Below, piece by piece: positions 13,301 through 64,000 of a DNA stretch of 64,000 nt (the first letter of the stretch is position 1; every line of letters starts with the position of its first letter). The stretch spans positions 25,009,216-25,073,215 of the forward strand of contig NC_086385.1 of the NCBI RefSeq assembly GCF_036588685.1, given 5' to 3'. A program made the translations under genes and the position numbers. This DNA is from Mytilus trossulus. Lineage: Eukaryota. Under the pieces are notes generated by a model. That model worked only from the letters and a program-made list of their open reading frames with translations. It was not told the DNA's origin and ran no database searches.

Positions 13301-16300
13301 GATAGTATGTCATTAATTACATTAATTACAACAAAGAGGTACAGAAGATTTGAAACAAACTTCCCATCACATTATGAAAATTATAGACAGACGAGTACCA
13401 ATTTTCAAAACATGCATATTTGATCTGTTGAAACATTTTGTAATGCATTTTTGTTATTCAATGTTTACTTATTTGATGCTATATCTCGTCTCATTAATTT
13501 TTATATGTTTCACCTTTGGTAAGTATTTGGTTTGGCGATACATTTTCATTTCTGTACTCGTACTGTGAACAACAAGTTAATTTATTTCCGTACTTCTGAC
13601 ACCAAAATGAGTACATTTAAATTTACCGTTAAATATTATTTAATTAATGTCATTTTTTTCCACAATTAAGGTTGTCTTTTTGACATGTTCTACAATTCCA
13701 ATTTTACTAAAAAAAAAATATATTGTGTCATAGATCAAACTTAAAAGTACAGTGTATGTTTACCTGGTTTTTTTTTAGTTGTCTTTTTGATCGAGGTAAG
13801 CTATTTCAGTTGATATTGCATAGTGTGTATTCTTATATTGTTATGTTACGCTACTGTGTCGTGTGAGGGTGACGAATGGATCCTGTTGTAATGTTTAAAC
13901 CCGCTGCATTTGTATACACCTGTCGTAAGTCAAAAGCCTGTTATTTTAGTGGTTGTCGTTTGTTAATGAGGTTGGTGAGTATTTGTCGTTTTTTAAATCG
14001 ATTAGACCGTTAGTTTTTCTGTTGGAATGGTTTAACACTAGTGATTTGTGGGCCCTTTATAGCTTGACAAAGCTCCTTGTTGAATGCCATTCTTTGACCT
14101 ATAAGTGTTCCTATTTTTATTCATTGTGTCTTGGATGAAGAGTTGTTTCATTGGCACTCAAACCTCATATTCTTATTGTAATATGTGAACTATTTATAAA
14201 TATAACTGAGTTACATATATAGTTGAATCATGTATATAAACGTTCTTTAGGAATAAGACGAATCTGAAAATTCATGTAAACCAAACACAACATTAATTCA
14301 GTCTAAACAATCCACGTTAAATTATGGAGCAAAATATAATAGTACGCTTTATCTGTATTTAACCTCCTGCTACTCAAGAGACAACTTGATTGGCTGGAGT
14401 TTATATAAGTTAAGCCTATATAGTTCTAAAAAGTGTTCTTTCAAGTAATCAGAAATAACATCAATATGCTGATGGGCTTTCTTACAATAATTGATTTGAG
14501 TTTCAGTAAATACTTCCAACAGGTAGTTATACATTACGCGAAGTCTAAGAGAGAAACAAAAATTACTGATCAAATGAACATGTCCCAAGTCAGGAGCCTC
14601 TGGCCTTTGTTAGTCTTGTATTATTTTTATATTAGTTTCTTGTGTACAATTTGGAAATTAGTATGGCGTTCATTATCACTGAACTAGTATATATTTGTTT
14701 AGGGGCCAGCTGAAGGACGCCTCCGGGTGCGGGAATTTCTCGCTACACTGAAGACCTGTTGGTGACCTTCTGCTGTTGTTTTTTATTTGGTCGGGTTGTT
14801 GTCTCTTTGACACATTCCCCATTTCCATTCTCAATTTTATGCATGTCGTTTTGAAAATGATAAGCCTGTATTTGGTATAGAAACATTATAAATGATTAAC
14901 CTTACAAATGTACTACAAATAGTTTTTCTCTGTTTGATAAATTTGTTTTTATAGTGACAAACCAGATGAAAATAGGCATATTATTAACTATGATAAGTGT
15001 TAGACAGGTACATTGTATTCTTGAAGTGCAAATATTGAGCTGATTATTAGTGATGCATTATTTTGCATGAATAGTACTCTTTTAAGCTTGATTTAAAACC
15101 TCTATGTCCTGGCCGTTCAGTCTATAAAAGAAAACATAATACTTGAATGCAATGAAATGTCCAGAAAGCAGTTTATTTTTTTTTGGCATTCTTTAACAAG
15201 TAATTTATATAACTACATTATGTCAAATCAGCTGGTGGACCTCTCGAACCTAAATGTATTATATAACTGTAAATGTTATGTAATATGTATAGTTTATATC
15301 GGTTCTAACTTATTTTCTTCTTTTTTCCATGTATAACGAATGGAAAAATATGAGGTCTTATACTCGTGCGATTAGAAATATAAAAATAAAGATATTTTGA
15401 AATATTAAGCAGATAAAAAGCTTCTAGTGTTCACACAATACATTAATTTTCCATTGACCAATAATTGAATCTATCTAAATGAAGTTGTCAAGTACTTTTT
15501 CTTACTTTAGTTTCAGGTTGAGGAAAAGAAGAATGATTTTGAACATTATCTGAGTAAAATCCTTTCTAGACATGCAAAACGACGACATCTTCGAAAACCA
15601 CATTATGTTTCAAATACGTTTCCATCGGAATATAAACATGAATTCAATAGTCTGCGAAAAGATATCTTTTGTCATGCTAAGGACTTAAAAACTTGGGGAG
15701 ACACTCTTCCTACTCGGTGGATAGTTCTTGAAAAAGAGATTAACCTAAAATTACCGGAACATGTAATTTCGTATATTGACGCTGGAAAGTTAGCAATAAA
15801 GTGTTCTTTCCATGAAGACAGTCGTATGACCATAGAACTAGACTCGTTTCTTAAGTTTGAACACAATATTGGCAATATCATTTTTTTTGAGGATGTGAAA
15901 AGTTTTATTGTATTAGATCCTGAATGGTTGGTGAACATATTTAGATGTTTTGTTTCACATAAGTATACAAATGAGTCTATCGGTATGCCAGAATGGGGTG
16001 AACTTGAACGAACGGGCAAATTGTCAGATAAACTTATTGAAAAATTACTAGAAAAAGTTCCGGATCTGAGCACAGCAGAGCGTAAAAGATTTGTTTTACA
16101 AATAATGGAAAAATTTGATATAATTGTAAAACCAATGAATTATGACGCCAGGAATGACTTTTATATGCCATGCATGATAAAATCGGAGCCATTTGAAAAC
16201 CTTATAGGAAGATCTGAATCTGAAGACTACAGAAGAACATCGTGGTTTTGTCTGAAGTTTAATTTTCTACCACCGTCATATTTTAATCACATTTTAGTAA

Positions 16301-19300
16301 GTTTTGTGAAAAGCAAAGAACTTTTGGTCGAAAAAAATAGACGGTTGCGCATATATCGCAACATTGGAGAATTTCAACTCAACACATCTGGTAGCCAAAC
16401 ACTTGTTATTTGCCTCTCTAAAAATGCAATCGCTATGCAAGTCAGGCAGTTGAATTGTAAAAATGAAGATATCTGTTTTAGTAGCGTTAAAGACATACTA
16501 AAAGACCTTGTCAATTCAATAAAGCAAAGATATGGTATAAATATATCATATACAATAAAATTTAAATGTGCAAATGGAATTTACAATAGTAACAGAATTC
16601 ATTTGGATACTTTAATGGAAACTGGTGAATATCTCTGTAAAGAACATGAAGCAATGCATACAAGCAAGGAAATATACAGCAGCTGGTTAACAGTATGTAC
16701 ATATAATATTGATAAAATAAATGTAAGAGAACATGCCAACTTGAAAACAGAAGATAAATCGCCTTATATACTAGCAAAAAAAAGGTGTAGTGTTTAATTA
16801 GAAAATTTAAAATCACCGGCATCATTCGGAAGTACACTTTGATAGCCTTCATATTCATGATGGTTCTTACGACAATTTCCATTAGTATTGGTGTGCCTAG
16901 GTTTAATTGATTATTGAGAAATCAGAATTTGAAGAAAAGAACCGAAGCTAAATGTTTTTTGAAAATTCTTATGTGTATTAGAAAATGTAAATGATATATT
17001 ATTCTTTTGTCTAAGGATGTAAAATCCAATTCAAGCTGATATTTTGCAGGAAGAAGAGGTTGATTTAGAAAGCAGTGAGTACAAATTTAGCTCTTGTACA
17101 TATTTTCCCTTTAAAACTGGTAACAAACGTAGAGTTCTATTTCTTTCTACGTTGTGAAAAAAACTGTTTCTTTCGATATTCAACTTCATACTTTAATTCT
17201 TATATTTGTAGGTATATTGTATAAATTCTGACAAAACCAAATTTATGTAAGCACCAAACATATCATAGACATATCAAACAAATACCACTGACCCAAACCC
17301 TCAGTTATAACATACTCCTTAACCATTATGTAACGTTCTACCTATTTTTTGATCGACGAATTTTTCAACTAAAATTTGATAGGATGACAAACTACAGACA
17401 AAAACAGGACAAGTATTATCTATAATAAATATTACCCTGTCAAGGATTATGGTTTTTGAAAACATCATCAGAGTGTTTAGCCTCTTGAATTGATCCGTTA
17501 CCAATTGCAAAACAAAAACAGACATGGACATAAAACTCAACGTTAATTACGGATACCATGAAAATAAAATCAGATAGCCATTGACAAACAAATATGTATA
17601 AATATTATTTCAAAGAGACATATCATGTGCATAAATACCAGTTGAGAAAAGAATTGAATTACTGCACTATAAGGCGAAGGAGATTTCCTTTCAAGACTAA
17701 TATTTGTTTCATTAATTTGAATGACCTTCACTGATCCTTCAGAACCAGAAATCAAGGAAGCAATAGACACGACCCTCTATGTCTCATTTTTAGACTTATA
17801 TTTATAGTATGTCATCAGGGATCATCTAAGTACCAGTAATTATGACAAAGGAGGCGATTTTAACTTCAATATTATCAATGTCCCCCACCCAAGCAGCAAT
17901 TTACCAACTTTACCTGCATATGGGATAAACATTTTCAAAGTCATGCTTTATCAAAATATTGTAGCTTGGGATTTTTAAAATGTCACCAATGTTTGATCAG
18001 AAGATTGATGAATCAAGATTATGTCTAAGAACGTCTGGTCTTTTTCAAAAAAAGGTTCATCTAAAGATACCAAGATCTTGTTGATTCCGCATCAACTTCA
18101 CAAATAAAGCATGATTGTATATAAGTATAGACTCTTGGTACTGACGTTGTTCATCATTTAGATTACATGTTTTTGATTTCTTATTTGTCTTTTTTAAATT
18201 ATTAACCATTCCTGTTAAGGCCCTTTTTGATAATAAATTTTTGGCTAGTCTTGGTACTTATGCATTCCGTCATTTTGCTGTGGCCAATTTGTATCCGTTG
18301 TTATTCTGTAATTAGTCACCACTTCGGTTTTATCATGTGTATCTATTATTTAGTCATTTGATAAAATTTACTGTTTGCGAAAGTATTAATTATTCCAAAT
18401 AATAAGGATGTTCTTATGCCAGGCAGAAAACCTAAGGCGAATTGGTCAAAACTTTTTGGAACTTTTGGTCTTCATAGCTCTTCATTGCTCTTCAGTGCTC
18501 CGTAACTTTGTACTTGTCTTTCGAACTTTTTTCATCTGAGCGTCACTGGTAAGTCTTGTATGAACGAAGCGCGTGTCTGGCGTATTAAATTTTAGGCCTG
18601 CTACCTTTTGTTAGCTATTATTCTTTTGTTTCTGTCCTATATATTATTCCATTTATTTGTATTGTTATCTTGTCATGTAATGTTGTCATTATAATGTTAT
18701 ATTTAACATTGCCATTAAAGCGTGGGGTTTGGCATGCCACAAAATCAGTTTTAACCCACAATAACCCATAATTTGGTTCTTAAAATGTCCTATACCAAGT
18801 CAGGAAAATGGCCATTGTTACATTATAGTTCGTTTCTGTGTGTGTTACATTTAAATGTTGTTTTTCTGTTGTGTCGTAGTTTTCCTCTTATATTTGATGC
18901 GTTTCCCTCAGTTTTAGTTTTTAATCCGGATTTTTTCTCTCAATCGATTGATGAATTTCTAGCAGCTGTATACTACTGTTGCCTTTATTTTTGTATAATT
19001 GTTGAGTTTCTTTCCTTGTCTATATTCCATTTTGTTTTTCTTTGTTGACATGCTAGTTAGTTTATATAGTGATTGAGGTAATATCACAAAAATTATAATG
19101 GAGATTTTTGCGACTGTCATATTAGTGAGAGGTTTAGCGCTATAAAATCCTACATTTTCTACATTTGAAAATGCATGTACCAAGTCAGAAATATGACATT
19201 AGTTGTCCATTCGTTTGATGTGTATTATCATTTAATGTTGTCATTTAATAAGATACTTTCCGTTTTGAATTTTCTTCGGATCTTACTTTTAACCTAATTT

Positions 19301-21391
19301 GAAATTTTACCTAATTATGTCTGTCTGTTTTTACACACATTCTGACATACACAGAGTGAGGTTAAGGAAGCTTTTAAACCAGGTTTAATCCATCATTTTC
19401 TTTTTAAAAAAATGCCTGTTCCTTGTCAGGAATATGATAGTTGTTTTCCACTCGTTTGATGTGTTTTAGCTTTTGATTTTGACATTTTGTAACGGACAAT
19501 CAGTCTTTAATTCTCCTTCAACTTCTGAAATCGTCGTTGGAGAGAAAGTGACTAAATAGATTGATGTTTTTTGTCAAATATATGTTTAGTATGATTATTA
19601 AGAACTATTTATCATTCTGCTTCTACGATTACTCTTTAACAAGTAAAACATTTTCGGCTGAAAATGGATGTTAGCTGTCACAGGAGCAAAGAATATAGAA
19701 CAAAAATATTACGTTCTAAACAACTGTGACCACACAATTCAAAGAGAAATTTGTAATGCCGTTGGAAACTTGCAAATTTTTTACCTCTCCCTAATAGTAC
19801 CGTGCAAGGACTGTTTAGCCAGTCAATGTCGTTAAAAACGTCAATTAGTTGTTAATCGTATATGGAATAATGCGAATATTGCTGGTAAGTTGCAGTAGTT
19901 TGATTTTATGTAAATTTTCATTTCAATAAGATCTTTGCATTCTTTTTGCAGAAAACAAAAGACAAAGAATGTAAGTTATGTTTTTGATATCTTAAATTTT
20001 AACGGTATTTATAGATATAAGAAGATGTGGTATGATTGCCCTATGAGAAAACTCTCCATCCAAAACACAATTTTATAACTGTCATGGTACATTCTTCATG
20101 TATGTTGAAAAACACAAAAAATATAAGAAACACAGACGAAAAAATACACTTCATTACATTGTATAAATTGAACCTCAGTGCATAATTTTATTACTATTTT
20201 TAACAAAGGACTCAAACTAAATTCATGAATGAAAATGTATCATCATGTTTATATAATTTCGAAAGAAAACAGTCTCAATTGAAAAATGAAGTCTGCAAAT
20301 ATTTGACTTTTTCTTTGTCTCATAACAGATTATTTCATTTCTGTTTAAAAAAAAAAAGTAAAACTGCGAAGAATAAACAAAAATCGTTTATATTTCTTAT
20401 ATCCAAGTTGAAATCAATTATGTTTTAAACGAATAATTTGTTAATATATTTGAAGATGAAGTTGGCGTTGATTTCATTATTATTTTGTTCTTTTTATAGG
20501 TGCAACAGCTGTAAAAACATGTCAGAGTACAAGTGCTATGATTGCAATAAATATTTTTGTAAGGACTGTTCCAGAACACACGAGGAAAAGTATATAAGCC
20601 ACGCAACGCAACTTATAAGTAATAGTTTCAAATTGAACTGTAAATTCAAAGTGACACAGCATTTTCATCATGATATAACAAGTGATATAAAATGTTTACC
20701 CAATGGGGAGTTAATTGTATCATTAACAGTAGAACAGGTAGTAAAGACATTTTCTGTCACTGGGATACAAAGACATAATATACATTTAGAAGACGAGCCT
20801 TTGAAAATGACTGTAGTGGACAAAAATACTGTTGCGGTGCTCCTTATAAACAGAAGTTTGGCTATAGTTGACATTCAACAAAACCATGTTCAATACATTC
20901 GGAATATTGCAACAACATATAGTTCAGATACATTAATATACATAGAAAACGAATTCTACATAAATGATACCCATGCTATTGTCGTATTTGATATGTCAGG
21001 AAGTGTAAAAAGACATATTACACTTAGTTTTAAACCATATGATATGTGTTACGATGTTGATTCACAACATATCTACTGTATCGATGGAGACACTAGTCAG
21101 CTGTTCTGTATTGATAGAGATGGTAATGATATATTCACATTTACTGATCCGAATATGACAAATCTAAGAAGTATTACCATAGATAACGACGGAAATGTGC
21201 TAGTGCTTTGTAGAAAGGACAATGATAAATCGGTATATGTTATCAAGGTAGATTCTAATGGCGAGAAAAGTGAAGTAGTAATTGAAAATATCAACACGTC
21301 ACCATATAAACCTCGTATTTGTTACGACCACTTAACCAATTCAGTAGTTATTGGATTGGATAGTAAAGTGTACGTTTATAGGAAAAAATGA
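1094..21391 (+). CDS. Spliced ROCO-family gene (5' end outside window): Roc GTPase - COR - B-box - beta-propeller. Exons 1094-1345, 4974-5183, 7750-7886, 15517-16692, 17050-17074, 19952-19970, 20500-21391
   Basis: All introns are GT..AG and the phases (1,1,0,0,1,2) chain into one frame. Roc motifs [30 protein letters not shown] and [11 protein letters not shown] are present, followed by COR motifs. Confidence 0.85.
3370..4783. mobile_element. Non-autonomous TIR DNA transposon with TTAA TSD (Kolobok- or piggyBac-like)
   Basis: TTAA|gtacctgtccttgtaaacatcatgcag ... ctgcatgatttttacaaaaacaggtac|TTAA; subterminal gtgattcatgac/gtcatgaatcac; several GTTNCYATGGNAAC palindromes inside. Confidence 0.75.
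4974..5183 (+). CDS. ROCO exon: Roc G3
   Basis: [33 protein letters not shown]; acceptor ttcttatag|, donor g|gtatgc. Confidence 0.92.
5222..5740. mobile_element. Non-autonomous element: ~150-bp palindrome followed by a module bounded by short inverted repeats
   Basis: aagagttgccaccgtcaatt (5236-5255) pairs with aattgacagtggcaactctt (5339-5358), with further nested stems; attctaatgc (5381) / gcataagaat (5731). Confidence 0.65.
7750..7886 (+). CDS. ROCO exon: Roc G4 region (absent from the ORF track)
   Basis: Hand translation gives [46 protein letters not shown]; acceptor catttcag|, donor |gtatgt; phases fit both neighbours. Confidence 0.9.
9700..10293 (+). mobile_element. Helentron/HINE-like element with ~170-bp internal tandem repeats
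   Basis: (gtcc)n-like tract at ~9743; unit aaaccacacaacagaatttcatgaaac at 9782, 9957 and 10126. Confidence 0.6.
10315..10790 (+). mobile_element. Penelope-like element 3' fragment (RT thumb plus tail)
   Basis: [24 protein letters not shown]...LKKLYGRHH. Confidence 0.75.
10790..12967 (+). mobile_element. Second HINE-like tandem array (~148-bp unit), split by a retroelement insertion at ~11487-12655
   Basis: tgacctcattttcatggttca-like motif at ~10950, 11100, 11248, 11395, 12693 and 12835; related copies at 9644 and at 33060-33420 (-). Confidence 0.6.
11487..12655 (-). mobile_element. Penelope-like element, 5'-truncated and degraded
   Basis: [30 protein letters not shown] followed by a tail homologous to the repeat at 14580-14840. 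Confidence 0.75.
14580..14840 (+). repeat. Well-preserved copy of a common interspersed repeat (tail of the 11.5-12.6 kb element)
   Basis: Matches the reverse complement of 11487-11727; other copies at ~3870-3935, 30930-31000 and 56365-56590; flanked by catgtc direct repeats. Confidence 0.7.
15517..16692 (+). CDS. ROCO exon: end of Roc plus COR domain
   Basis: [67 protein letters not shown]; in frame with ORF 15826-16797; donor aca|gtatgt. Confidence 0.9.
17050..17074 (+). CDS. ROCO linker micro-exon (EEEVDLES)
   Basis: ttttgcag| ... a|gtgagt. A longer version from 17016 is frameshifted (see findings). Confidence 0.55.
17690..18130 (+). mobile_element. Degraded Penelope-like RT fragment
   Basis: VSFLDLYL...[30 protein letters not shown] with stops. 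Confidence 0.7.
18540..18583 (+). ncRNA. Degenerate hammerhead copy
   Basis: gcgtca CTGGTAA gtc..GAAGC gcgt GTC tggcgt; core mutated at several positions. Confidence 0.55.
19952..19970 (+). CDS. ROCO 19-nt micro-exon
   Basis: tctttttgcag|aaaacaaaagacaaagaat|gtaagt has strong splice sites and converts phase 1 to the phase 2 required by the last exon. Confidence 0.7.
20500..21391 (+). CDS. Terminal exon: B-box-type zinc finger plus NHL-like beta-propeller
   Basis: CNSC-x7-CYDC-x4-CKDC-x3-H, then blade-like repeats ([35 protein letters not shown]); acceptor tttttatag|. Confidence 0.85.
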
Positions 21392-21438: not shown

Positions 21439-23058
21439 ATATACAAAATTTAGTCGTGGTATCTATGATGAGTTTATGAATACAATTACGTTCTTCTGAG
21501 AAAAAAAAAGCAATTCTCATCAAGTAATATGTTATGTGGACTATGATGTGTGCAAAACAGAACAGATTACTCAACATCCAAGGTGTTGTTAAATATAGTT
21601 TTTATTGTTTTGATAGTTTGTATATATTCCTTCTAATTTAGTGAATAATCCTTATTCAAATATGTCGTTTTAATGAGTGGTGTCACCGCATACAATATAC
21701 GTATTAATTTGACAACAGTGTGTATTGTTTTTGTTACTCTTTTATGTCCCTTTAGGTTAAAAATTTCAAAAAGTATATATTCGTTATTGTCATATTAACT
21801 TTTCTGGACTATTTCAAAAACAGTGTAGTTTTGTTAACTGTGTTATCAATCACTTGTTGTTTTGTTTTCTTTTACATTAGAGTAAATGTTAATTATTGTG
21901 TCAATTTTTGTGTGTGTGTGTGTGATGTCTTGGTTTTTTTTCATAGGATGGATTGAAAAACATTGTGGATATGAACTTTTCTTTTGTCTTTTTAGTGTGT
22001 GATTATTAAAAAAAAATTAAAAATATTTCCTAAAACTTGTTCCTATTTCAATCATGCCAGATCTTCAAACAATTCGGAATCTTCGTGTAAAGTTATCATA
22101 CTGTTAAGTCTGGTACTTTTGATAACTATAATCATGCATATCTAGGACACATCACAGAAGAAAATTTAGTAAAAGATGTCGTCGGCCAGTCAGAAGAGGG
22201 TTAGTTATGACTACTGTTTAAAAGTATAGGCCAGTATGTACTATATGAATTTATGGGTTGTTAGGCAACATGCACACTCATTAGAAACGTTTAGTATGAA
22301 TGCTTAACGTTTTTAGAGACTGTCACTTTCTCTATAGCGTGCATTATATTTAATGACATTATTTACATACAAACTAAGACTAAGACTAGCGTTTTATATA
22401 CGTATCAACATTTCAAAAAGGGTTGCTGCGATCAGTGTACAATTGTCATATCGAATGCAAAAGTAGGTTCATTTATCTTAAACTTAGCATATTAAGGTAA
22501 ATAATTATTTATTAAATCACAATTTTTTCTAAAGATAGTATTTCTAGAGCATGAAGGTTAGCTTCTTTCCTAAGGTCATATCAATCCACGAAGGTTTACA
22601 CATATAATAATAAAATGTAATCCCAGATTGTCTATGACTGTTAGCCACAAAAACAACTATATATATATAACATACTGAAAAATAACACATCGTTAAATAG
22701 GGATTGGGCGACGTCAAATATGATTAAACCCGCCACATTCTGTATGTGCCTGTTTCAATTCAGTAGCCGATAGTTCAGTAGTTGTCATTTGGTGCTTTTT
22801 ATCTGATCTTGTTGTTTTTGTTCATCGTTTTGTATGCCATAGATCAGACATCAACCTGAATGCAATCGACATTCTTTTTTTTTTTTTTTTTAACAACAAA
22901 TATAGTCTTTATTCTAAAGATATCTTGTTACAGTTATACTTCACTGTCCAAGCGCCAGTGGAGTATTCCTGTGAAAAAACTTCTGAGTTGCCAGGAACAT
23001 ACTCAGAATATAATAAACAATATTACATAAACTATTACAATATTTTCAACTTATTCTA

Positions 23059-26000
23059 TTAAATCAATTTCTTCAAATTTATGAAAAATACATTTTGAGA
23101 AATTATTTTGCTTTCCTTCTTAACCCTTCTTAATTCCTTTATAAACAATTCATACACATCTATATATTTCAATTTTTGCTCTGAAACATAGTATGACTTG
23201 AAAATGCAAAAACCTAAAACTGTCAAAAAATAGTTAAAACCATAATAACCTTTATCTGATATTTTGTATCCAAATACTAATTGTTTAACTGATATCTTAT
23301 TTTTAAAATTGAGTTTTGCAAGAAGATGTTCCACTTTATCCCAAAAGTCTTTTAAAAAAGAACATGTTATAAAGAAATGAAAGTAATCTTCCTCTTCTGT
23401 TTGACAAAAATTACATTTACTATTAGTAGAAATTTTCCATTTAAATAGTAATTGCTTTGTGGGAATAATATAATTTAGCAGTTTCCATCTAAACATTTTC
23501 ATCTTATTCTCTCTTAAAAATTTAAATATAAAATTGTTTACGAATGACATATTTGGCTTGCTATCTAGCTTTAAATTTTTTGTCCAAATATTGATACCAA
23601 TCGGCTGTGTATACTTTTGATCTACTAGACTATTATATAACATTTTATTAAAGATATCTTGTGCTTGTATTTGTTTATTTCCCCATCTCAAATTATCCTT
23701 ATTAATACTAATTTTACTCTTTAAAGAGTTTTCTTTAATTAGAATTTGCTGCCATTCCTTTGGGATGGAAGATTTTAATATTGTAAGCTCTGAAATCCAA
23801 TTAGACTTATTGCTTAATTTTTCTAAAATAAAACCCTCTGATAACTTTCCCTCACGATCAAGTATGTCGTTGATGTAAATCAAACCACTTGCTACCCAGT
23901 TTTGAAAGAACAAACTTTTGTTACAATGTTTAACGTATCTATTTCCCCAAATAATCTGTTTTCTTATATTTGAATAATGATCTTTACATTTTGTAAAACC
24001 TCCCCCTGTTTTCACCCAGCTTGAAATTACTTGCAAATAAAAGTCTGGTATATTTTCAAATTCTTTTAGTGATTTAATGTTATCTAAATTCATGTTAAAG
24101 ACAAGATAATTTTTTCCCAGATTGTTGAAATATTTGGTAGGAATAATCTTCCAGTTCGGCATAGTGGTTGAATTGAATTTGGAAACCCATGAAGCTTTCA
24201 GTGATGTAAAATAGCTATCAAAATCAACCATTTTTAACCCCCCTTTTTGATAATCGCCAATAAGTGTATTTCTTTTTACTTTGTCATTTTTACCTTCCCA
24301 AATATATTTAAAACAACAGCTTTCAATCTCTTTTATGTATTTGTTTGGAACAATACACGAAGTAGCCAAAAATGTAAATTTAGGTAAGATCAAAGATTTT
24401 ATAATTAATATTTTTCCAATTGTTGTTAATTTTCTTTTTTTCCATGCCTTCAGTAAGGATTTCATTTTATCAATTTTAGGTTCCCAATTTAACTTTTCAC
24501 ATTCGTTTATGTTGTGACCAAAATAAATCCCTAAGGCTTTAACTGGTTTGTCCGTCCAGCGTATTCCCTCAATTTTATCTTTACTATGTTTAAGCGCCCC
24601 TATCCATATTCCTTCTGTTTTACTGCGATTTAATCTCAGACCTGAGAAAGAACCAAACGTTCTTTTATATTCATAGCATTTGATATGTCGGTTTTTGAAC
24701 TACAAAAAAGAGTTGTATCATCTGCCAATTGAGATATTTGTATGCTATGTGTTTTTTTATCAATAGTAATTCGAATACCTTTGATGTCGGGGTTTTGTCG
24801 TAATCTCAAAGCCATAATTTCTACTGACAAAACAAAAAGTAAAGCAGATAAAGGGCATCCTTGACGGATTCCTCTAGAGTTTTCAAAAATCTCAGATACC
24901 CATCCATTATTTATTACACATGTTTGTATTCCCTTATATAAAGTTTCCACCCATGATATAAATGATTCATTAAAACCGAAATGTTTTAGAACGCTTAACA
25001 TGAATTCCCATTCCAAAGAATCAAAAGCTTTAGTAAAATCAACAAATACGATAGCCCCATCTATTCCATATGATTCTGCATAGTCCATAATGTCTTGAAT
25101 TTGCCTTAAATTGAATCCAATAAAACGATTTTTTACATACCCAGTTTGATCTTCATTGATTAGTTTAGGAAGCAGTTTTTTAAGTCTCTGTGCCAAAACA
25201 TGGGATAGTATTTTTAAATCTACGTTTAATAATGATATAGGACGATAATTGTCCAAAGATAATGGGTCATTCTTTTTAAATAATAAAGATAGTACACCTG
25301 TTCGTTGGGTATACGATAAAAGTTTTTCCTCGTGTCCCTTATTAAGAACTTTAACTAACATTAGTTTTAATTTTTCCCAGAAAGTCTTATAAAATTCCAA
25401 AGTCAAGCCGTCAAGACCTGGTGATTTATTTAGCTTCATCGTGTTTATTGCACTGGTGCATTCATCTATAGTTACTTCCCCATCACATTCTTTAAAGTCA
25501 TTAATATTTATATCTTTTTCCATAATAGTATCAGCAACGTATGAATGTAACAAATTTTTATCGGGGCATGTTGTAGTGTATAATACTTTATAATAATTCT
25601 TTATCATTTCCAAAATTTCATCCTGGTTTGTTGTTACTTCGTTTCTTTCGTTTCTAAGCTTATTAATAGATTTTTTAACCTGTCGCTGTTTTTCTAACCC
25701 TAAAAAATAAGCGTTATTTTTCTCCCCTAATTCCACCCATTTTTCCCTTGATCTAATTTGAGCCCCCTTGGCTTTATATTCATAAATTTCGTCTAAATGC
25801 ACCTCTAATTGTTTTATATCTTTTGTTAACTTTTCATCTTCCTTTAATTTTTCATCTCTTAATTTCGTAAGTTGCTCTAATTCGTTTTCCAACTTTCTTG
25901 TTGTCTCCCTTGATAACTTTGATTTTCTTTTACAGTAAAGTATAGATTCGTCCCTGATTTCGACTTTTAAATTGTCCCATAGTAAACGTATATAACTGCT

Positions 26001-26839
26001 GTCACTATTGATTATACGACCTTTAAACCTATTTATCACATTATTGATTTTATCTTGATATTCAATATCTTTTAAAATAGAATTATTCAATTTCCAGTAC
26101 CCATTCCCTCTTTCAGAATCTAAAACCCGAATGTTAATTACTACCCCTTGGTGGTCCGTCACTTTAATAAGTGCTGGTTTTATTTTACAATTCTCAACAA
26201 GAGACTGAAAATCTTTTCCAATTAAAATATAATCTATCCTACTTGCTTGAGTCTTCTCCATGTAAATTGTTGTGTGCTTTCGTGTAGAAAGCGCCAAATA
26301 TCTATAAGGCTATGACTTTTAATAAAAGTTTTTAAACTATTAACAGGCTCGGTAAATCGTGCATTTTTATTTAAACTTTTTCTATCAATATTTCTTAACG
26401 CTTCATTGAAATCGCCTCCAACCAAAATTATGCCAATCGAGTTTTCCTTTAAAAAAAGGTTGACCTTTTTATAGAAAGAATTCCTATCAGTCCTGTAATT
26501 TGATGCATACAGACAAACTAATGAAAAAATCAAATTATTCATTTTTACATTTAATAGGATAAGTCTCCCGTCGTTATCACAGAATTTATCAATTACCTCG
26601 ATATCTGCGTATTTATTTATAGCGATTGCTACCCCCCTACTAGCTGTAGTGCCATTACTGCAGTAGAAAATAAAATCAGATTCTTTTTCAAGATTTGTTT
26701 TTGTGTCTTCGTTTAAGTGCGTTTCTTGTAATAAGGCAACGGAGCATTTATTGCGTTTAATCCACTCTATAACCCTCAATCCTTTTTCTTTATTTTTTAT
26801 ACCATTAACATTAAGTGTACAAAAATTGATGTTTTTCAT
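23059..26839 (-). pseudogene. LINE ORF2 (APE endonuclease - reverse transcriptase - C-terminal zinc knuckle) with two frameshifts (~26255, ~24660)
   Basis: EN motifs TLNVNGI, LLQETH, VGGDFN, SRIDY and TDH; RT motifs KSPGLDG, YRPISLLN, DFTKAFD, GIRQGCPLS and QLADD; after the -1 nt lesion the frame resumes FGSFSGLRLNRSKTEGIWIG; CNFC-x8-H-x4-C. Confidence 0.95.
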
Positions 26840-28205
26840 AATGGTATCGATAGTTTAAAAAAGTATTTAATTTATGTGATTTATCTACATGATCTACTAC
26901 TTTAAGATACAGTTTGTCAATCGACAAAAGGTAACAATGTGTGACCTTGGTTAAGCTCGTGTCAATTATCAACTCGTGAAGTACGGACGTACCCAGGTAC
27001 AAATCATTTGTAACATAGCGTATAATATAGAAAATATGTGGAACACAGTTAATGTTTGAATTGGACTTTTCTGAAAAAGTGAATCTTGTATATCGCAATT
27101 GCCAGATGTACTTACATAAGTGGAAAATAATACTATTTGTATCTAGAAAGGATTTAATTAGTAATATAGAATTGAGACAGAATTGCCTGTTTGTTTTATT
27201 TTTACGTTTTTGGAGCGACTGTGTCCCGAAGGAGAGTCCATTTTCAATAAGGTAGGTACTTTTGTTTTTCTTTAAAACATCGATAACATATTTGTATTTA
27301 TAATTTACTTTGTTATGATTTAAAGCAAGTGATTCTTGTCTATGTGTAAAAATAGTTTTACAATTTTGAATACCGTCAAGTATGTCTAAAAATAGACTTA
27401 GAAAAACCCAACATAGCAGGTAAGTATAAAATGTCTTTAGCATGAGCATTCCAATCATAATAATATAATCATACAGTATTAAGCTAATAACTAGACACGT
27501 TGTCCTAAGTTTAAAGAAACTATAGTTGTTATACATTGTTTGCATTTTTGATACATGTAAGAACATTCTAAATTTAATCAATTGACTTAGTACAAATAAC
27601 AGGTAGATAGTACTGTATACACATGTCCATAATAAAATCAGTGCAGTACTAACTACCAAGCATACATTCTTGCCTCTGTATAGTTGATTGAAGTTAATTA
27701 AACAATAATAATGCATATTATATAATTTCATGCGGTTTATTGTGAATGAGTAGTGGTTTACTTTGAAATGATAAACGTAAAATTTACGTGACAAATTTTC
27801 AATCCGATATGATGTTTCTATAAATAGAAAAAGGAAAAACCACTTTATTTGGAAAAGTCTATCAGTTGTTTTTCGTATATAAAAACAATTTTTGAACAAA
27901 AATTTACATATAGTCTGATTGAACATATTTTTGGATATAAATATAAGCGCTTGTCTTTTTAAATCATATATGTTACACCATAGTTTTGTATATAATATCA
28001 TTAATTGACATTTTATAACATCTAACTTTTGTAAAGTATTGCACATACACATGTATGTCATTTTCAACATTATATTAACTATTGCATATAGCCATTTTTT
28101 GAAAAAATGTCTACTGTTTTCATCATCATTTAAATTAAACTCTGTATTTGAGCTTGATCTTTTTTTCATGTTTAATCTTTTTTTTATTTTATTTTTAAAT
28201 AACAT
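26811..28205 (-). CDS. LINE extra ORF (ORF-X), 464 aa, putative membrane protein of unknown function
   Basis: ATG-initiated, stop-free 1395 nt in very AT-rich DNA; fills the ORF1-ORF2 interval; hydrophobic segments at aa ~181-210, 237-256 and 259-276. Confidence 0.7.
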   Translation of the reverse strand: MLFKNKIKKRLNMKKRSSSNTEFNLNDDENSRHFFKKWLYAIVNIMLKMTYMCMCNTLQKLDVIKCQLMILYTKLWCNIYDLKRQALIFISKNMFNQTICKFLFKNCFYIRKTTDRLFQIKWFFLFLFIETSYRIENLSRKFYVYHFKVNHYSFTINRMKLYNMHYYCLINFNQLYRGKNVCLVVSTALILLWTCVYSTIYLLFVLSQLIKFRMFLHVSKMQTMYNNYSFFKLRTTCLVISLILYDYIIMIGMLMLKTFYTYLLCWVFLSLFLDILDGIQNCKTIFTHRQESLALNHNKVNYKYKYVIDVLKKNKSTYLIENGLSFGTQSLQKRKNKTNRQFCLNSILLIKSFLDTNSIIFHLCKYIWQLRYTRFTFSEKSNSNINCVPHIFYIIRYVTNDLYLGTSVLHELIIDTSLTKVTHCYLLSIDKLYLKVVDHVDKSHKLNTFLNYRYHYEKHQFLYT

Positions 28206-28285
28206 AAAAATATAGAAAAATATAATAAGTTAATAAATTATATGGTTTAAAACTATTATACAACAGTTATTTGACAAGATAAGTT

Positions 28286-29551
28286 TCATGCTTTTGATTT
28301 CTTTGGTCCAATGTTTTCAGTAGGTGTAGGTGGAGTATGATTTCTTGCAGCTGATTTTCTTGACATTTTAGGTGTATTTACGAATTTGTCAATGGATGGT
28401 TGCGATTTGTCTTGACCTGTGTTGTTCACATTTGACATTTGCACATTTCTAGCTGGACCTGTCTTTGTGCTACTAGCTTTGTTGGATGTACTACTAGTAT
28501 GTGATGGTTTTAGTATAGCTGTATTTGGTGTTTGTTTGTCAGCTGTTTCAGACATATGTTCTATTGTCTGATTGTCATTGGACTGTACAACTTCACTTTC
28601 ACTCTCTGGGACATTTACATCTAGGTTTTCTGAATTTTCATTTTCAGTTTGTAAGTCAGATTGGCAATCTAACATTTTATGACCACTTTTGTTGCATGTT
28701 CTACAAACCCAATCATTAGGGCATTCATATATTAAGTGACCTGGTTTTAAGCATTTATGACATGTCTTTATATTGCTACTAGTATCATAGTTGATACTTC
28801 TGTTAAATTCTGGTTGTCCAGCATTGAATACTCTAGCCATATATTTACCAATCTGTAAATTTCTTGGCACTACTTTATCTAGGCATTTACTTATAACCAC
28901 TCTGTCTCCAGTCTGACAAGCAGTTACTCTACCATTGATTCTCAAGCATTCTCTAGACAGACTTTGGATGTCACAACCCTGCAGTGTTAAAGCTCTGTGG
29001 ATTTGCCCATCATCCGCGGATAGAGGGACATTTTTTACTTTAATGCGAATTGTATTTTCTTGTAGCCTACCCGGATTTCGAGGATTTTGCGAGTACAGAG
29101 GTACCTGCCTGCCACGCAGGTGCAACCCTGTCACTAACAAAGACAGTCTGTCCTCCTCGTTGTCCATATACAGGCGCAACATTTCTCTTATCCGTTGTAT
29201 ACCTTTGATTCGTTCTGCAGGTACCTTGACATCTATTGCATTATATATCTCGACATTCGTCAGCCATAGAGATTTCGGAGGTTTCCCTGAACCATGGACA
29301 TCTTCATCTTTAAGGAAAATGGGCTTTACAAAGTTCCCTGGGTCATTGTCAGTGTTTTGAGATGTTACATTTAAATTTGTTTGATGATTAGTTACCACCT
29401 CAGAAAAAGACGCCATTTTTTCTTTGTTTTGATTTTGTTCGACCACTTCATCATTGATATTTTCACTTTCTTCACTTTGTAGGACACTTAACAGACGTTT
29501 TATACGATCAGCTGTCATACGTTTACACATAGATTCGATTTCTGAATCCAT
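28286..29551 (-). CDS. LINE ORF1, gag-like nucleic-acid-binding protein with two CCHC knuckles
   Basis: CHKCLKPGHLIYEC and CRTCNKSGHKMLDC; IRIKVKNVPLS RRM-like strand; low-complexity C-terminus; intact 421 aa. Confidence 0.9.
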   Translation of the reverse strand: MDSEIESMCKRMTADRIKRLLSVLQSEESENINDEVVEQNQNKEKMASFSEVVTNHQTNLNVTSQNTDNDPGNFVKPIFLKDEDVHGSGKPPKSLWLTNVEIYNAIDVKVPAERIKGIQRIREMLRLYMDNEEDRLSLLVTGLHLRGRQVPLYSQNPRNPGRLQENTIRIKVKNVPLSADDGQIHRALTLQGCDIQSLSRECLRINGRVTACQTGDRVVISKCLDKVVPRNLQIGKYMARVFNAGQPEFNRSINYDTSSNIKTCHKCLKPGHLIYECPNDWVCRTCNKSGHKMLDCQSDLQTENENSENLDVNVPESESEVVQSNDNQTIEHMSETADKQTPNTAILKPSHTSSTSNKASSTKTGPARNVQMSNVNNTGQDKSQPSIDKFVNTPKMSRKSAARNHTPPTPTENIGPKKSKA

Positions 29552-29714
29552 TTTACCTTAATTCTACTATTTTAACAACTTTTTAGGCGGAGTGCTATCT
29601 CAACGAGCCGTAGCAACAAGGGACATCACTCAATTCGACATTCTTACCAGCATTTTAATCAGCCTGATCATTCAATCGATTCTCATTCCCAAGTAGTCAG
29701 CACTCCGGTGAATA

Positions 29715-61225: not shown

Positions 61226-64000
61226 GTGACAGAGTTTCACAATACAGTGGAATTTCTTGGGGGAAGACAAACATCAAATTTCATTAGAGGTCCCATGTGT
61301 CATTCACAAGGGTCTGTCTATCAAAAGGACCTGTCAAATCACAAGCTGAACTTAGGAGGACCAAGTCGTTCAGTAAGACAGTTATTGAAAGGGGACTTTA
61401 CAACCTCAAATGGAGTAATTGGTAAATTACTGAGTACATTTCTACAACTTATTAATGGCAATGAAAGCGTAGAACCATTGCTCAAAAATGCAATTACTCA
61501 GGTCAAGTCGGTGTGTCGGCGTTTGATGGAACAGCACTAAAGACTGTATTTGAGGTCGACGATAGAACTAAACGAGTAATAGGAGGCAGTCAGGATTATG
61601 ATGTAGTATACATAAAAGCAAATCCAGATCCGAAACCAGAAGATCTGAGAGGGAGCATTGTCACAGAGGCTGCCGTCTCCTATTTGACTACATTATGCAA
61701 CAAAGTACAATGTAAGCAGAAGCTATTGATTACCTTACAAAGGCAGGAAAAACAGTTACCTTTATGAAAAAAATATTCATTAACACAATGCTCACATGCC
61801 AATTATGTCTACACTGCCTCGAAGGCGTCGAGTATGTCGACAATATTGTCAAATATAACCATGAATGCAGCTCAATTTGTGAAACATGTATACGTGACTC
61901 AAAAGTATGTGATCTTTGTATCACAGTCGGCCAAACTAGTATCCATCCTTCTCTGAGGTCCTGCAGAAAATGTGTAGAAGATAAAAAAGTTTGCATAAAG
62001 TGCTCAGTGTTAGCCTTGATATCGGACTGTAAATCTGGGAACAAAGTTGCATTGGAGGCTTTGAAAAAAAACATAGAGGATGGTTCCGCTCATCCATTAT
62101 TGTCTGTTCTTTCGATACTGTCCGACTGCGTCCATGTTGGAAAATCAATCAAATGCAGTTTTTCAAATTGGTACCTGCTTTTCAACAAGGAGAGGGCAAA
62201 TCTGTATATGCTCCACACGTGTAGATATTCGAAAAAGACTACGGAAACAGTCGATTGTGTAAGAAACAAAGACAGAATGTCTATTGACACTGTTATAAAG
62301 ATCAGTAGTACGGCAGTCCGCGACATTCTGCGATCAGTAGATTTGATTGTCCATAACATGATACCTGAACGTTTTAGACCTACTGAGAACAACAAACTAG
62401 GAATGTACCCACACCCAACTGCCATCGCGTGCAACAACCTATGTAACATTGTTTTCTGTGACATGAACGCACTAAATAAATCATCAAGTATTTGGAAAGC
62501 TAGATTTCACAATCATGTGCAAATACTAGAGCTTCAAACGACAGAAATCACTCACTGTAGAAGTTTAGTAATTTTAGCTGGTATATGTTTTGTATGCCAG
62601 TTTGGTATAAATATATTAGTTTTTAGATTAACCCGAACCGTCGGTTTATCATTAAAATCATTAGAGTCAAAAGTCCAACTAAAGAGTACGGCTGAAACCT
62701 TCAACTTGTCAACAGAAGGTACAATATTTGATTTACGCAATCGCATTGAAAACCATCAGAAAAATGTTGAACAATCAAGACCCCACAAAAATGAACTATA
62801 CATGAATGAAGACATCCAGCCGGGGATTATAACAAAGGCAGCTGAAGACATGATGTTTTGCAGTAGTGATGTAAACAGACTTGTATATCAAATCAACATT
62901 AAAGCGGATGGGGTTGGTTACAAGGGATATGCTGTTAATATGTGTACGTATCCGAACTAATATTCGCGAATTCTTGATCTATGCTGTTCTGAAAACCATT
63001 TATATGCTTCTTGGAAAGGCTTAGATGGAAACGGGGAATTAATGGTATTCAATTTAGACGGGTTAAATGTACATGAGGCAAAACAACACAGATGACTGTC
63101 AAGAAATTTATGGTCTTACTAAGTTGAGAAACGAAATAGCCTTCACAGATACAAAAGCAAGAAAGATCAAACGCTTTACAGCCGGAAATACAATTGTCAT
63201 TGCTGGCACAGGGATCGAGGGATGCTCAGTTGGTTCGGCTTCACATTCCACATTCGGACAGCTCATGGGTATTGCATGCGAGAACGCTACAAAAAACCGT
63301 GTGTGTGATGATCAATTTGGGTCGGTCAAACTAGTCACTACAATTAGTGGAACTATTCCCTTTCTAGAAAGTTTACATAAACTTTACTTTACCTTTGGTA
63401 TTCATGCAAAAGGAACAAAATCACCAACAGATATGACAATAGAAAACATTGCAGGTATGAAGGACGCACTCAATTTATTTGAAAATGCTGAACAAAATGT
63501 AAAAGACCTCACCAATCTAACAACAACAAAAAATGGACCGGAGGGAACAATTTCGTTGAGAACCATGGAGTCAGTTGCACTGTCACATTCTTCAACAAAA
63601 CGTGTTCTGGAATCATCTAACATGCAGTCTTGTCTAACAACTGTTGTCGAAAACCTTCATGCTGTCAGTCATGTTAAGCAGAACCTTCCAACAAAGCTCG
63701 AATATTGTAGGGATTCGGGACAATCTTTAGAGAGAGCGTCAAGACGATAACTAAATGGTCCGCCTTCTATTTTACGAAAAAGTTCTCATATTATCCTTTT
63801 CCAGAAAACAGCGTAAGACTCTTATCGATTTCGTCGTTAGAAAAAAACAGACCAAATAACTGTAAGTCGTGATAACCTAAATCAATTATATGAAAGGGCA
63901 AATAGACACGGGAAGTGTATACCACAAAGAATCGTTCGACAGGAAAAGACAGCATACAAATATGGTACTCTGCCTCTTAACATGTACCAGATGTCGAACC
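61226..64000 (+). pseudogene. Decayed P-element-like DDE transposase with Cys-rich insert, SAP-like motif and NHL-repeat propeller; continues past the window edge
   Basis: Collinear ORF pieces 61226-61540, 61513-61767, 61764-62960, 63067-63750 and beyond; motifs AFDGT, LISDC..GN, DCVHVGKS, DRMSID and VVENLH...PTKLEY; NHL-like HPTAI and IAGTG..G...G.A....F.Q.MGI. Confidence 0.6.

Follow-up and report, generated by a model that had tools for sequence, protein, structure and literature searches.

An L1/Tx1-like non-LTR retrotransposon in the window (the whole 64,000-nt stretch of Mytilus trossulus DNA that we analysed) harbors a third long sense frame, hereafter ORF-X, between ORF1 and ORF2, and this layout is real and clade-wide. 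Our sequence comparisons indicate that, in active lineages, selection keeps one sense frame of a 0.6–1.7-kb AU-rich spacer clear of stops and frameshifts while leaving the amino acids free, and they suggest that the frame exists to carry ribosomes over the long spacer to the reverse-transcriptase gene, not to encode a conventional protein.

A sequence-only reading of the window had described a full-length element bounded by a target-site duplication, and this was borne out: an 11-bp duplication lies at 22866 and 29635, enclosing 6758 nt. The parts of this element, the window's representative of what we call family A, are the following (positions in the window; minus denotes the reverse strand).

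22877..29634, minus: full-length L1/Tx1-like non-LTR retrotransposon, family A, 6758 nt, defined by target-site duplication, ends, domains and sister copies
29635..29645, no strand: target-site duplication, 5′ side, 11 bp
22866..22876, no strand: target-site duplication, 3′ side, 11 bp
29552..29634, minus: 5′ UTR, very short at 83 nt; its first bases are common to several families
28286..29551, minus: ORF1, 421 aa, with a CCHC zinc knuckle; dN/dS 0.16–0.21, indicating purifying selection
28206..28285, minus: gap from the ORF1 stop to the ORF-X AUG, 80 nt, AU-rich, free of AUGs in the window copy
26811..28205, minus: ORF-X, the putative bridge frame, 464 codons, 26.7% GC, dN/dS about 1
27372..27665, minus: three hydrophobic segments of ORF-X (aa ~181–278), at chance level for the composition
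27417..27427, minus: ACTTACC-type motif, seen again in other families but not in held-out ones
26975..27001, minus: 27-nt block identical in families A and B, whose ORF-X are otherwise ~67% identical
26941..26949, minus: RGGTCA motif, 108 nt upstream of the ORF2 AUG, a position common to non-alignable families
23059..26839, minus: ORF2 (AP endonuclease, RT, zf-RVT), interrupted in the window copy
22877..23058, minus: 3′ UTR with an AATAAA (22908–22913) and a 15-nt poly(A)

In Pfam searches, ORF2 matched PF03372 (AP endonuclease), PF00078 (RT) and PF13966 (C-terminal zinc-binding, zf-RVT), while ORF1 scored above the cut-off for zf-CCHC and the element gave no match to Transposase_22. Among solved structures (PDB), the RT profile was closest to human L1 ORF2p (E 1e-45), with R2 at E 1e-24, and a relative of ORF2 (56%) comes from Mytilus edulis. 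Tx1 ORF1 is of the CCHC zinc-knuckle type and vertebrate L1 ORF1 of the coiled-coil type; the window element has the Tx1-type feature, a CCHC knuckle and not a coiled-coil. A poly(A) tail and a target-site duplication are present, as in the L1 group. Many Tx1 members have sequence-specific targets; no such target site was seen here, the 5′ flanks differing between copies as judged by eye. By its sequence features the element is an L1-group LINE; the RT tree described below consists of unnamed sequences only. Its sister copies are 97–99% identical across ORF-X. ORF2 of the window copy is 99.3% identical to that of an intact sister (L037); it is broken into three pieces, with small deletions near 26255 and 24661, and the window copy is therefore not autonomous.

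The 464-codon frame that the earlier reading had seen filling the ORF1–ORF2 interval encodes 464 aa, starts 80 nt past the ORF1 stop and ends with a stop 29 nt inside ORF2. Its GC content of 26.7% agrees with the earlier estimate of about one quarter, and the frame is longer than chance allows, as that reading had argued: the longest open stretch in any of the six frames of 2000 shuffles was 150 codons, and the other two sense frames of the interval contain 42 and 45 stops. That ORF-X is a chance or single-copy artefact is ruled out by these shuffles and by the clade-wide layout. No internal repeats accounting for ORF-X were found. The frame lacks codon-position bias, with first-position G at 0.12 versus 0.18–0.27 in ORF1 and ORF2. 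Met13 (28167–28169) aligns with the start of the frame in family B and may be the true start in family A.

To place the window copy among its relatives, 140 stretches were fetched from ORF-X matches and best-scoring endonuclease matches (the best 150 of 1151 and the best 150 of 1475 candidates, respectively, were scored); since they were picked from the best-scoring matches, young copies are over-represented. Together with the window this gave 141 stretches, of which nine had no usable ORF2 start; the remaining 132 fell into 24 families at 90% endonuclease identity, 19 of them with a whole spacer. These 19 spacers measure 618–1744 nt with a GC content of 24–28% (best copies). Eighteen of the 19 families have at least one copy with an AUG-started frame of 202–536 codons over at least 80% of the spacer, and thus three sense ORFs, not the usual two of the L1 group. 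Two sense ORFs are usual in that group, though not strictly defining. In the 18 families, the ORF-X AUG lies 19–147 nt past the ORF1 stop and the ORF-X stop between −63 and +38 nt from the ORF2 AUG. ORF-X is intact in 49 of 81 whole-spacer copies; the nineteenth family comprises three copies, with the middle frame in pieces. Conservation of the frame across family copies, which the sequence-only reading had put forward as a check, therefore holds for 18 of 19 families: the segment is not unique to the window copy, is not closed in its sisters while ORF1 and ORF2 stay open, and matched no described family in the searches reported below.

Family B, the sister of family A (endonuclease 79–80% identical), carries a homologous frame of 513–536 aa in four copies, with ~44% protein identity, and ORF-X similarity is detectable only between families above ~74% endonuclease identity. 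Metagenome contigs of other assemblies extend the picture. Among 33 loci inspected of 80, ORF1, middle frame and ORF2 are all present in seven (L171, L175, L178, L179, L181, L183 and L200; L171, L178 and L179 end early), and two further loci contain part of the middle frame. In the RT tree, the 16 included families of the genome and seven of these metagenome loci form one clade (support 97/93), with L200 outside it on a long, unsure branch. In the sister lineage L176 the spacer measures 524 nt and the longest open run is no more than 108 codons, and in four more distant elements of the tree the spacer is almost nil. No relative of the element's RT was found in viral contigs.

Across the 18 ORF-X, there are 0 stops in frame versus 638 and 611 in the other sense frames. 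Likewise, none of ~78 expected stops was seen in five pairs, which were chosen as intact, although several intact copies exist in most of these families. Ten close pairs, which are not independent, differ by 31 indels, of which 29 have lengths divisible by three and two offset each other across 64 nt; in distant pairs, where alignment is unreliable, the corresponding counts are 16/18, 13/17, 10/22 and 17/46. The open stretch begins on average 6.9 codons upstream of the first AUG, which 0 of 100,000 simulations matched when openness was unrelated to the AUG. Eleven differences inside ORF-X in one contig set comprise seven nonsynonymous changes, four synonymous changes and no stop.

The sequence-only reading had proposed a dN/dS below 1 as a check on ORF-X, and ORF-X does not show it. 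In nucleotide-only alignments, blind to amino acids, the pooled value for ORF-X was 1.00 versus 0.11 for ORF2, and pooling five independent pairs (1520 codons; one pair from metagenome contigs) gave 1.0 (0.87–1.15). In codon models, none of seven informative pairs (0.85–1.6) differs from 1, with values of 0.99 and 0.94 for families A and B, 1.14, 1.6, 1.16 and 1.16 for subfamilies of a third family, and 0.85 for a fourth pair. For the same pairs, ORF1 is at 0.16–0.21 and ORF2 at 0.10–0.29 (0.05–0.29 overall for the two genes). Three near-identical pairs (0.75, 3.6 and 3.4; all p>0.1) are uninformative. For the pair L179/L183, in which L179 is a broken copy, the interval around 1.6 (1.1–2.0) excludes 1. 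Along ORF-X, codon positions 1+2 and 3 do not depart from a 2:1 ratio across 30-codon windows (p=0.985) while their rates covary (rho 0.50, p=3e-4), arguing that the rate variation lies at the nucleotide level. Tryptophan, glycine, proline and cysteine (W, G, P, C) are not preferentially kept (retained at 0.37, 0.31, 0.37 and 0.44, no better than other residues). Between families A and B, synonymous sites of ORF-X have diverged about half as much as those of the flanking ORFs, and in another pair to a similar extent. With stops purged, the frame kept and dN/dS near 1, selection therefore acts on the frame from its AUG to the ORF2 start, and not on the residues.

Several short nucleotide motifs recur in the spacer, and in families A and B the last 200 nt of ORF-X are more conserved. 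RGGTC(A/G), a motif found post hoc, lies 70–400 nt upstream of the ORF2 AUG in 12 of 17 families (1.4 expected) and recurs in four of seven held-out families (0.57 expected, p=0.002), two of these four being closely related to discovery families. Its occurrences are spread over the three frames (7/6/2), and it is present in the metagenome elements L171, L175, L173 and L178 and absent from L179, L181, L183 and L200. We take RGGTCA to resemble a nuclear-receptor half-site. ACTTACC, CACGTG and a TGACCC-N6-TGACC repeat each occur in subsets of families, with ACTTACC in 0 of 7 held-out families. Read on the opposite strand, the ACTTACC-type motif would match a consensus 5′ splice donor, and on the element strand the 5′ end of U1 snRNA; E-box is likewise a putative label among the recurring spacer motifs. 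At the junctions we found neither a shared RNA structure nor a TURBS-like element, 100-nt windows gave no consistent folding signal, and Rfam returned no match. A search of sequencing runs listed no RNA run containing the sequence. RNA reads on the element (48, 38 and 0 in three raw runs, plus 14 records in one contig set) are too thin for statements on expression or splicing; they contain no joints, at a coverage too thin for this to count.

How ribosomes might traverse such a spacer is constrained by its start codons. Sixteen spacers contain 494 AUGs versus 328 expected, or ~31 each, with no depletion, and a scanning 40S subunit would meet all of these, which favors elongation over scanning. 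The gap between ORF1 and ORF-X itself holds 0–4 other AUGs across families, so that the ORF-X AUG is often not the first. At the other end, ORF-X stops within 30 nt of the ORF2 AUG in 14 of 18 families and 33–63 nt from it in the other four. From these features, ORF-X is probably a translated bridge that delivers ribosomes to ORF2 by termination–reinitiation, across a spacer kept for nucleotide-level signals. Ribosomes ending ORF1 would reinitiate at the ORF-X AUG, elongate across the spacer, stop next to the ORF2 AUG and start anew on it; ORF2p would thus be made at a low level via two successive termination–reinitiation steps. The spacer, in turn, might be kept for RGGTCA and other short motifs, for damping of ORF2 output, or for both; perhaps it contains an internal enhancer that offsets the 80-nt 5′ UTR. 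The ORF-X product would mostly be a by-product, although in most families its N-terminal hydrophobic stretch may anchor the RNA at the ER during translation or earmark the peptide for removal. Of the two functions that the sequence-only reading had offered for the frame, delivery of ribosomes to ORF2—then its alternative—fits best.

Even a frame that is merely open to the spacer end would be expected to stop close to the ORF2 AUG. This speaks against a bridge, as do the four families whose stops lie 33–63 nt off, the lack of a shared junction structure, the AUGs that often precede that of ORF-X, the single pair at dN/dS 1.6 and the N-terminal hydrophobic stretch described below; RGGTCA, missing from four metagenome elements, and ACTTACC, missing from the held-out families, weigh on the same side. 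The bridge alone also leaves the spacer's escape from deletion unexplained.

The earlier reading had favored an accessory gene under selection, such as a membrane or anti-defence protein. What survives of this is the clade-wide maintenance of the frame; the protein itself is unsupported, with dN/dS at 1.0, no constrained windows and no homologue. As the reading had noted, no domain is recognisable, with no Pfam family at E≤1. A search of 5.8 billion proteins yielded no ORF-X homologues among 3049 candidates, a full HMM scan gave five matches that are all 69–218-aa pieces of the A/B type, and the ESM Atlas offered no usable match. AlphaFold2 returned a pLDDT of 33 and a pTM of 0.19, although a six-sequence alignment makes this a weak test. 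The three TM-length segments that the reading had pointed out do exist at a Kyte–Doolittle (KD) threshold of ≥1.6 (aa ~181–278), but they are not above chance for the composition: amino-acid shuffles give 1.6 and stop-free random codons 2.2 such segments, and the peak hydropathy has p=0.13 and 0.22 against the same two nulls. A membrane role fares better at the N-terminus, where a hydrophobic 15-mer (peak ≥2.0) within the first 60 codons is found in 14 of 18 ORF-X (3.0 expected), with a hydropathy z of 7.1 in frame versus 1.8 and 3.4 in the other frames. The stretch recurs in five of six held-out ORF-X (1.5 expected, p=0.002) and, in all, in 19 of 24 versus 8.6±2.0 in local dinucleotide-preserving stop-free shuffles, interior windows being at the null; it is called by hydropathy alone, in related families that are not fully independent. 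This frame-specific signal indicates that the peptide is not wholly irrelevant, but it is missing from family A of the window (peak 1.47).

Two rival readings assign the peptide a larger part. A true accessory protein (env-, movement- or anti-defence-like), for which purifying and positive selection average to a dN/dS of ~1, would explain why the ORF is kept clade-wide with its own AUG, why hydrophobic segments summed over 18 ORFs exceed shuffles (45 versus 33±4) and why L179/L183 lies above 1. We nonetheless consider it improbable: no window leaves neutrality (p=0.985), retention of W, G, P and C does not exceed that of other residues, the composition tracks the nucleotide background like that of other frames, the length varies from 202 to 536 aa, similarity vanishes below ~74% endonuclease identity, and neither the searches (no homologue beyond A/B fragments, no Atlas match) nor the fold prediction on six sequences, weak test as it is, points to a protein. 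The other possibility, compatible with a bridge and here taken as the primary reason for the frame, is a membrane tether acting in cis, whereby the nascent N-terminal signal-anchor brings in SRP and keeps the LINE RNA at the ER or nuclear envelope during translation while the remaining chain need only be long and stop-free. The frequency of the N-terminal stretch argues for it, and SRP-dependent ER localisation of Ty1 RNA is a precedent (PMC3945221, accessible portions). Yet family A lacks the stretch, codon positions inside the stretches diverge equally (0.30/0.34/0.32 over 79 codons), hydrophobic–polar changes are not suppressed overall (1.02 versus 1.19, p=0.09), a T-rich block supplies part of the signal (frame +2 is also raised), and a tether gives no reason for the frame to reach the ORF2 AUG. 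As the primary reason we thus hold it to be unlikely, if worth keeping in mind.

The remaining rivals dispense with both the peptide and ribosome delivery. Ribosomes on the spacer could shield the RNA from surveillance (nonsense-mediated or AU-rich decay, premature polyadenylation) with ORF2 initiated independently. This predicts the same signature, openness without amino-acid constraint, and suits an AU-rich spacer in which the 18 ORF-X contain 67 sense AATAAA versus 46 expected; however, most ribosomes would presumably still terminate at ORF1 with more than 5 kb downstream, and a stop at the ORF2 AUG is not required, so that we give this reading little credence. Least credible to us is that ORF2 is reached by an IRES, an internal promoter, splicing, readthrough or frameshifting, the open frame being incidental or part of a fusion. 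IRESs have been predicted in silico in long vertebrate L1 spacers (PMC5381506, in its accessible portions), RGGTCA is positional, and in 13 of 18 families ORF2 is in frame +1 relative to ORF-X. But an IRES or promoter needs no open frame. Readthrough from ORF1 is ruled out, as ORF-X occurs in each of the three possible frames relative to ORF1, and a universal frameshift fusion to ORF2 is ruled out by variable frames and by the four of 18 families whose ORF-X and ORF2 open frames do not overlap. Among 35 copies that are truncated or interrupted, the 5′ ends are scattered between −1722 and −1 without clustering, which speaks against this reading and leaves a retrotransposed subgenomic RNA unsupported.

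Taken at its broadest, the translated bridge would make this a deep, tricistronic LINE clade in which a kilobase gene works by being translated: a neutrally evolving bridge by which ribosomes cross an internal regulatory cassette, and which in most families carries a signal-anchor at its N-terminus that tows the RNA to the ER in cis, on a principle that may also explain long vertebrate L1 spacers. We advance this combined picture tentatively, as a serious possibility that falls short of being probable. L1 ORF2 translation and the persistence of inhibitory long spacers are stated open questions in the accessible portions of two studies (PMC5381506, PMC4072516), and the clade offers a sharp natural test, in which the functions of frame, peptide and nucleotides can be told apart by means of a stop codon, a compensated frameshift and synonymous recoding. 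The clade also provides one of the few replicated examples in which selection keeps long ORFs open while dN/dS stays at 1, with a bearing on de novo gene birth and on gene-calling rules under which conservation of a long ORF is taken to mean conservation of a protein.

We found no account of a middle sense ORF in a LINE in the literature searched; Repbase, Dfam, subscription papers and supplements were outside its scope, so that a bare annotation may exist. The comparisons that follow draw on the accessible portions of the papers cited. Tx1 and L1-Tx1 elements are reported to be widespread in molluscs, and a bivalve survey names Tx1 without ORF detail in those portions (PMC10294476); a eukaryote-wide survey there mentions only ORF0 and reverse-strand ORFs (PMC5203782). 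With L1/Tx1 elements the studied clade shares an APE-RT-zf-RVT ORF2, a CCHC-knuckle ORF1, poly(A) and target-site duplications, and it differs in the additional sense, AUG-started frame of 200–540 codons filling the inter-ORF spacer. Other additional ORFs with hydrophobic character are ORF0, the ORF3s and the Ty1 case. Primate L1 ORF0, however, is a short antisense ORF in the 5′ UTR whereas ORF-X is internal and sense (PMC5203782), env-like and other ORF3s reside in LTR elements (PMC5408684), and ORF-X, unlike ORF0 and the ORF3s, is without amino-acid constraint.

For the junction, the nearest parallels are the TURBS of caliciviruses and influenza B, SART1 and human L1 ORF2, where, as for ORF-X, stop and start are close and usually out of frame (PMC10275272, PMC4072516). 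Reinitiation after long ORFs has a range in which the stop lies within ~30 nt of the downstream AUG (PMC10275272), and for L1, termination a short distance before ORF2 has been named as key to ORF2 translation (PMC4072516, citing Alisch et al.). In those systems the upstream ORF is a functional protein whereas ORF-X evolves neutrally, and the ORF-X/ORF2 junction, unlike theirs, has no fixed UAAUG/AUGA overlap and no shared structure that we found. For the spacer, the parallel is with the long L1 intergenic regions of fish, frog, lizard, afrotherian and megabat, 257–1032 nt in vertebrates, which are treated as non-coding or IRES-bearing (PMC5381506, PMC4072516). The long spacer of megabat L1 holds retrotransposition back, activity drops still more once the spacer's AUGs are taken out, and the fact that such a spacer persists is described as hard to reconcile (PMC4072516). 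Vertebrate L1 spacers and those of the studied clade are alike in being long, often AT-rich, paired with a short 5′ UTR and unexplained in their persistence; by published descriptions, the clade stands apart in its spacer length of 618–1744 nt and in its selection for an open frame.

At the junctions compared, ORF2 lay in the +1 frame relative to ORF-X—the AUG-started sense frame that fills the AT-rich spacer between ORF1 and ORF2—in 13 of the 18 family representatives, a pattern that may stem from shared ancestry. Four families (L067, L068, L069, and L147) carry a complete or partial TGACCC-N6-TGACC-type repeat at about −270 to −400 relative to the ORF2 AUG, and apart from this repeat, their spacers could not be aligned.

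A similar layout was found in two metagenome elements. In L200, a 180-aa frame (1447-1989) fills the spacer and ends at the ORF2 start; in L193, a 131-aa frame (1732-2127) also ends at the ORF2 start and spans part of a 1-kb spacer. Since both elements fall outside the main clade, these ORF2-abutting frames hint at a wider or repeated origin of the arrangement.

Among further genomic copies, we observed a tandem pair of family A elements (L031/L032; G000:C20:1.69-1.71 Mb) separated by 5984 nt. One copy has a broken ORF2 and an intact ORF-X, and the other retains a 1234-aa ORF2, with a single nonsense change in its ORF-X. The AT-rich spacer harbors insertions of 0.4-3 kb in several copies (L034, L035, L036, L042, L049, L061, and L074), and L061 appears to contain the 3′ end of a different LINE. 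At the 5′ terminus of the element, divergent families with 5′ UTRs of ~80 nt have approximately ten bases in common (window 29552-29634; 5′ ends of L034-L060), a candidate initiator element.

The window also contains four further ORFs:

15826-16797, + strand, 323-aa ORF carrying a Roco-family COR-A domain (Pfam match, E 4.7e-10)
20456-21391, + strand, 311-aa ORF with weak, below-cut-off Pfam matches to B-box and beta-propeller/NHL
61764-62960, + strand, 398-aa ORF (ORF call)
63067-63750, + strand, 227-aa ORF (ORF call)

The COR-A ORF is probably a host-gene exon, and the 311-aa ORF may be TRIM-like. Pfam returned no match for the 398-aa or the 227-aa ORF. Atlas features of the 398-aa ORF pointed, with a score of 0.81, to P-element/THAP9-like transposases, marking it—as a lead only—as a candidate member of this group.
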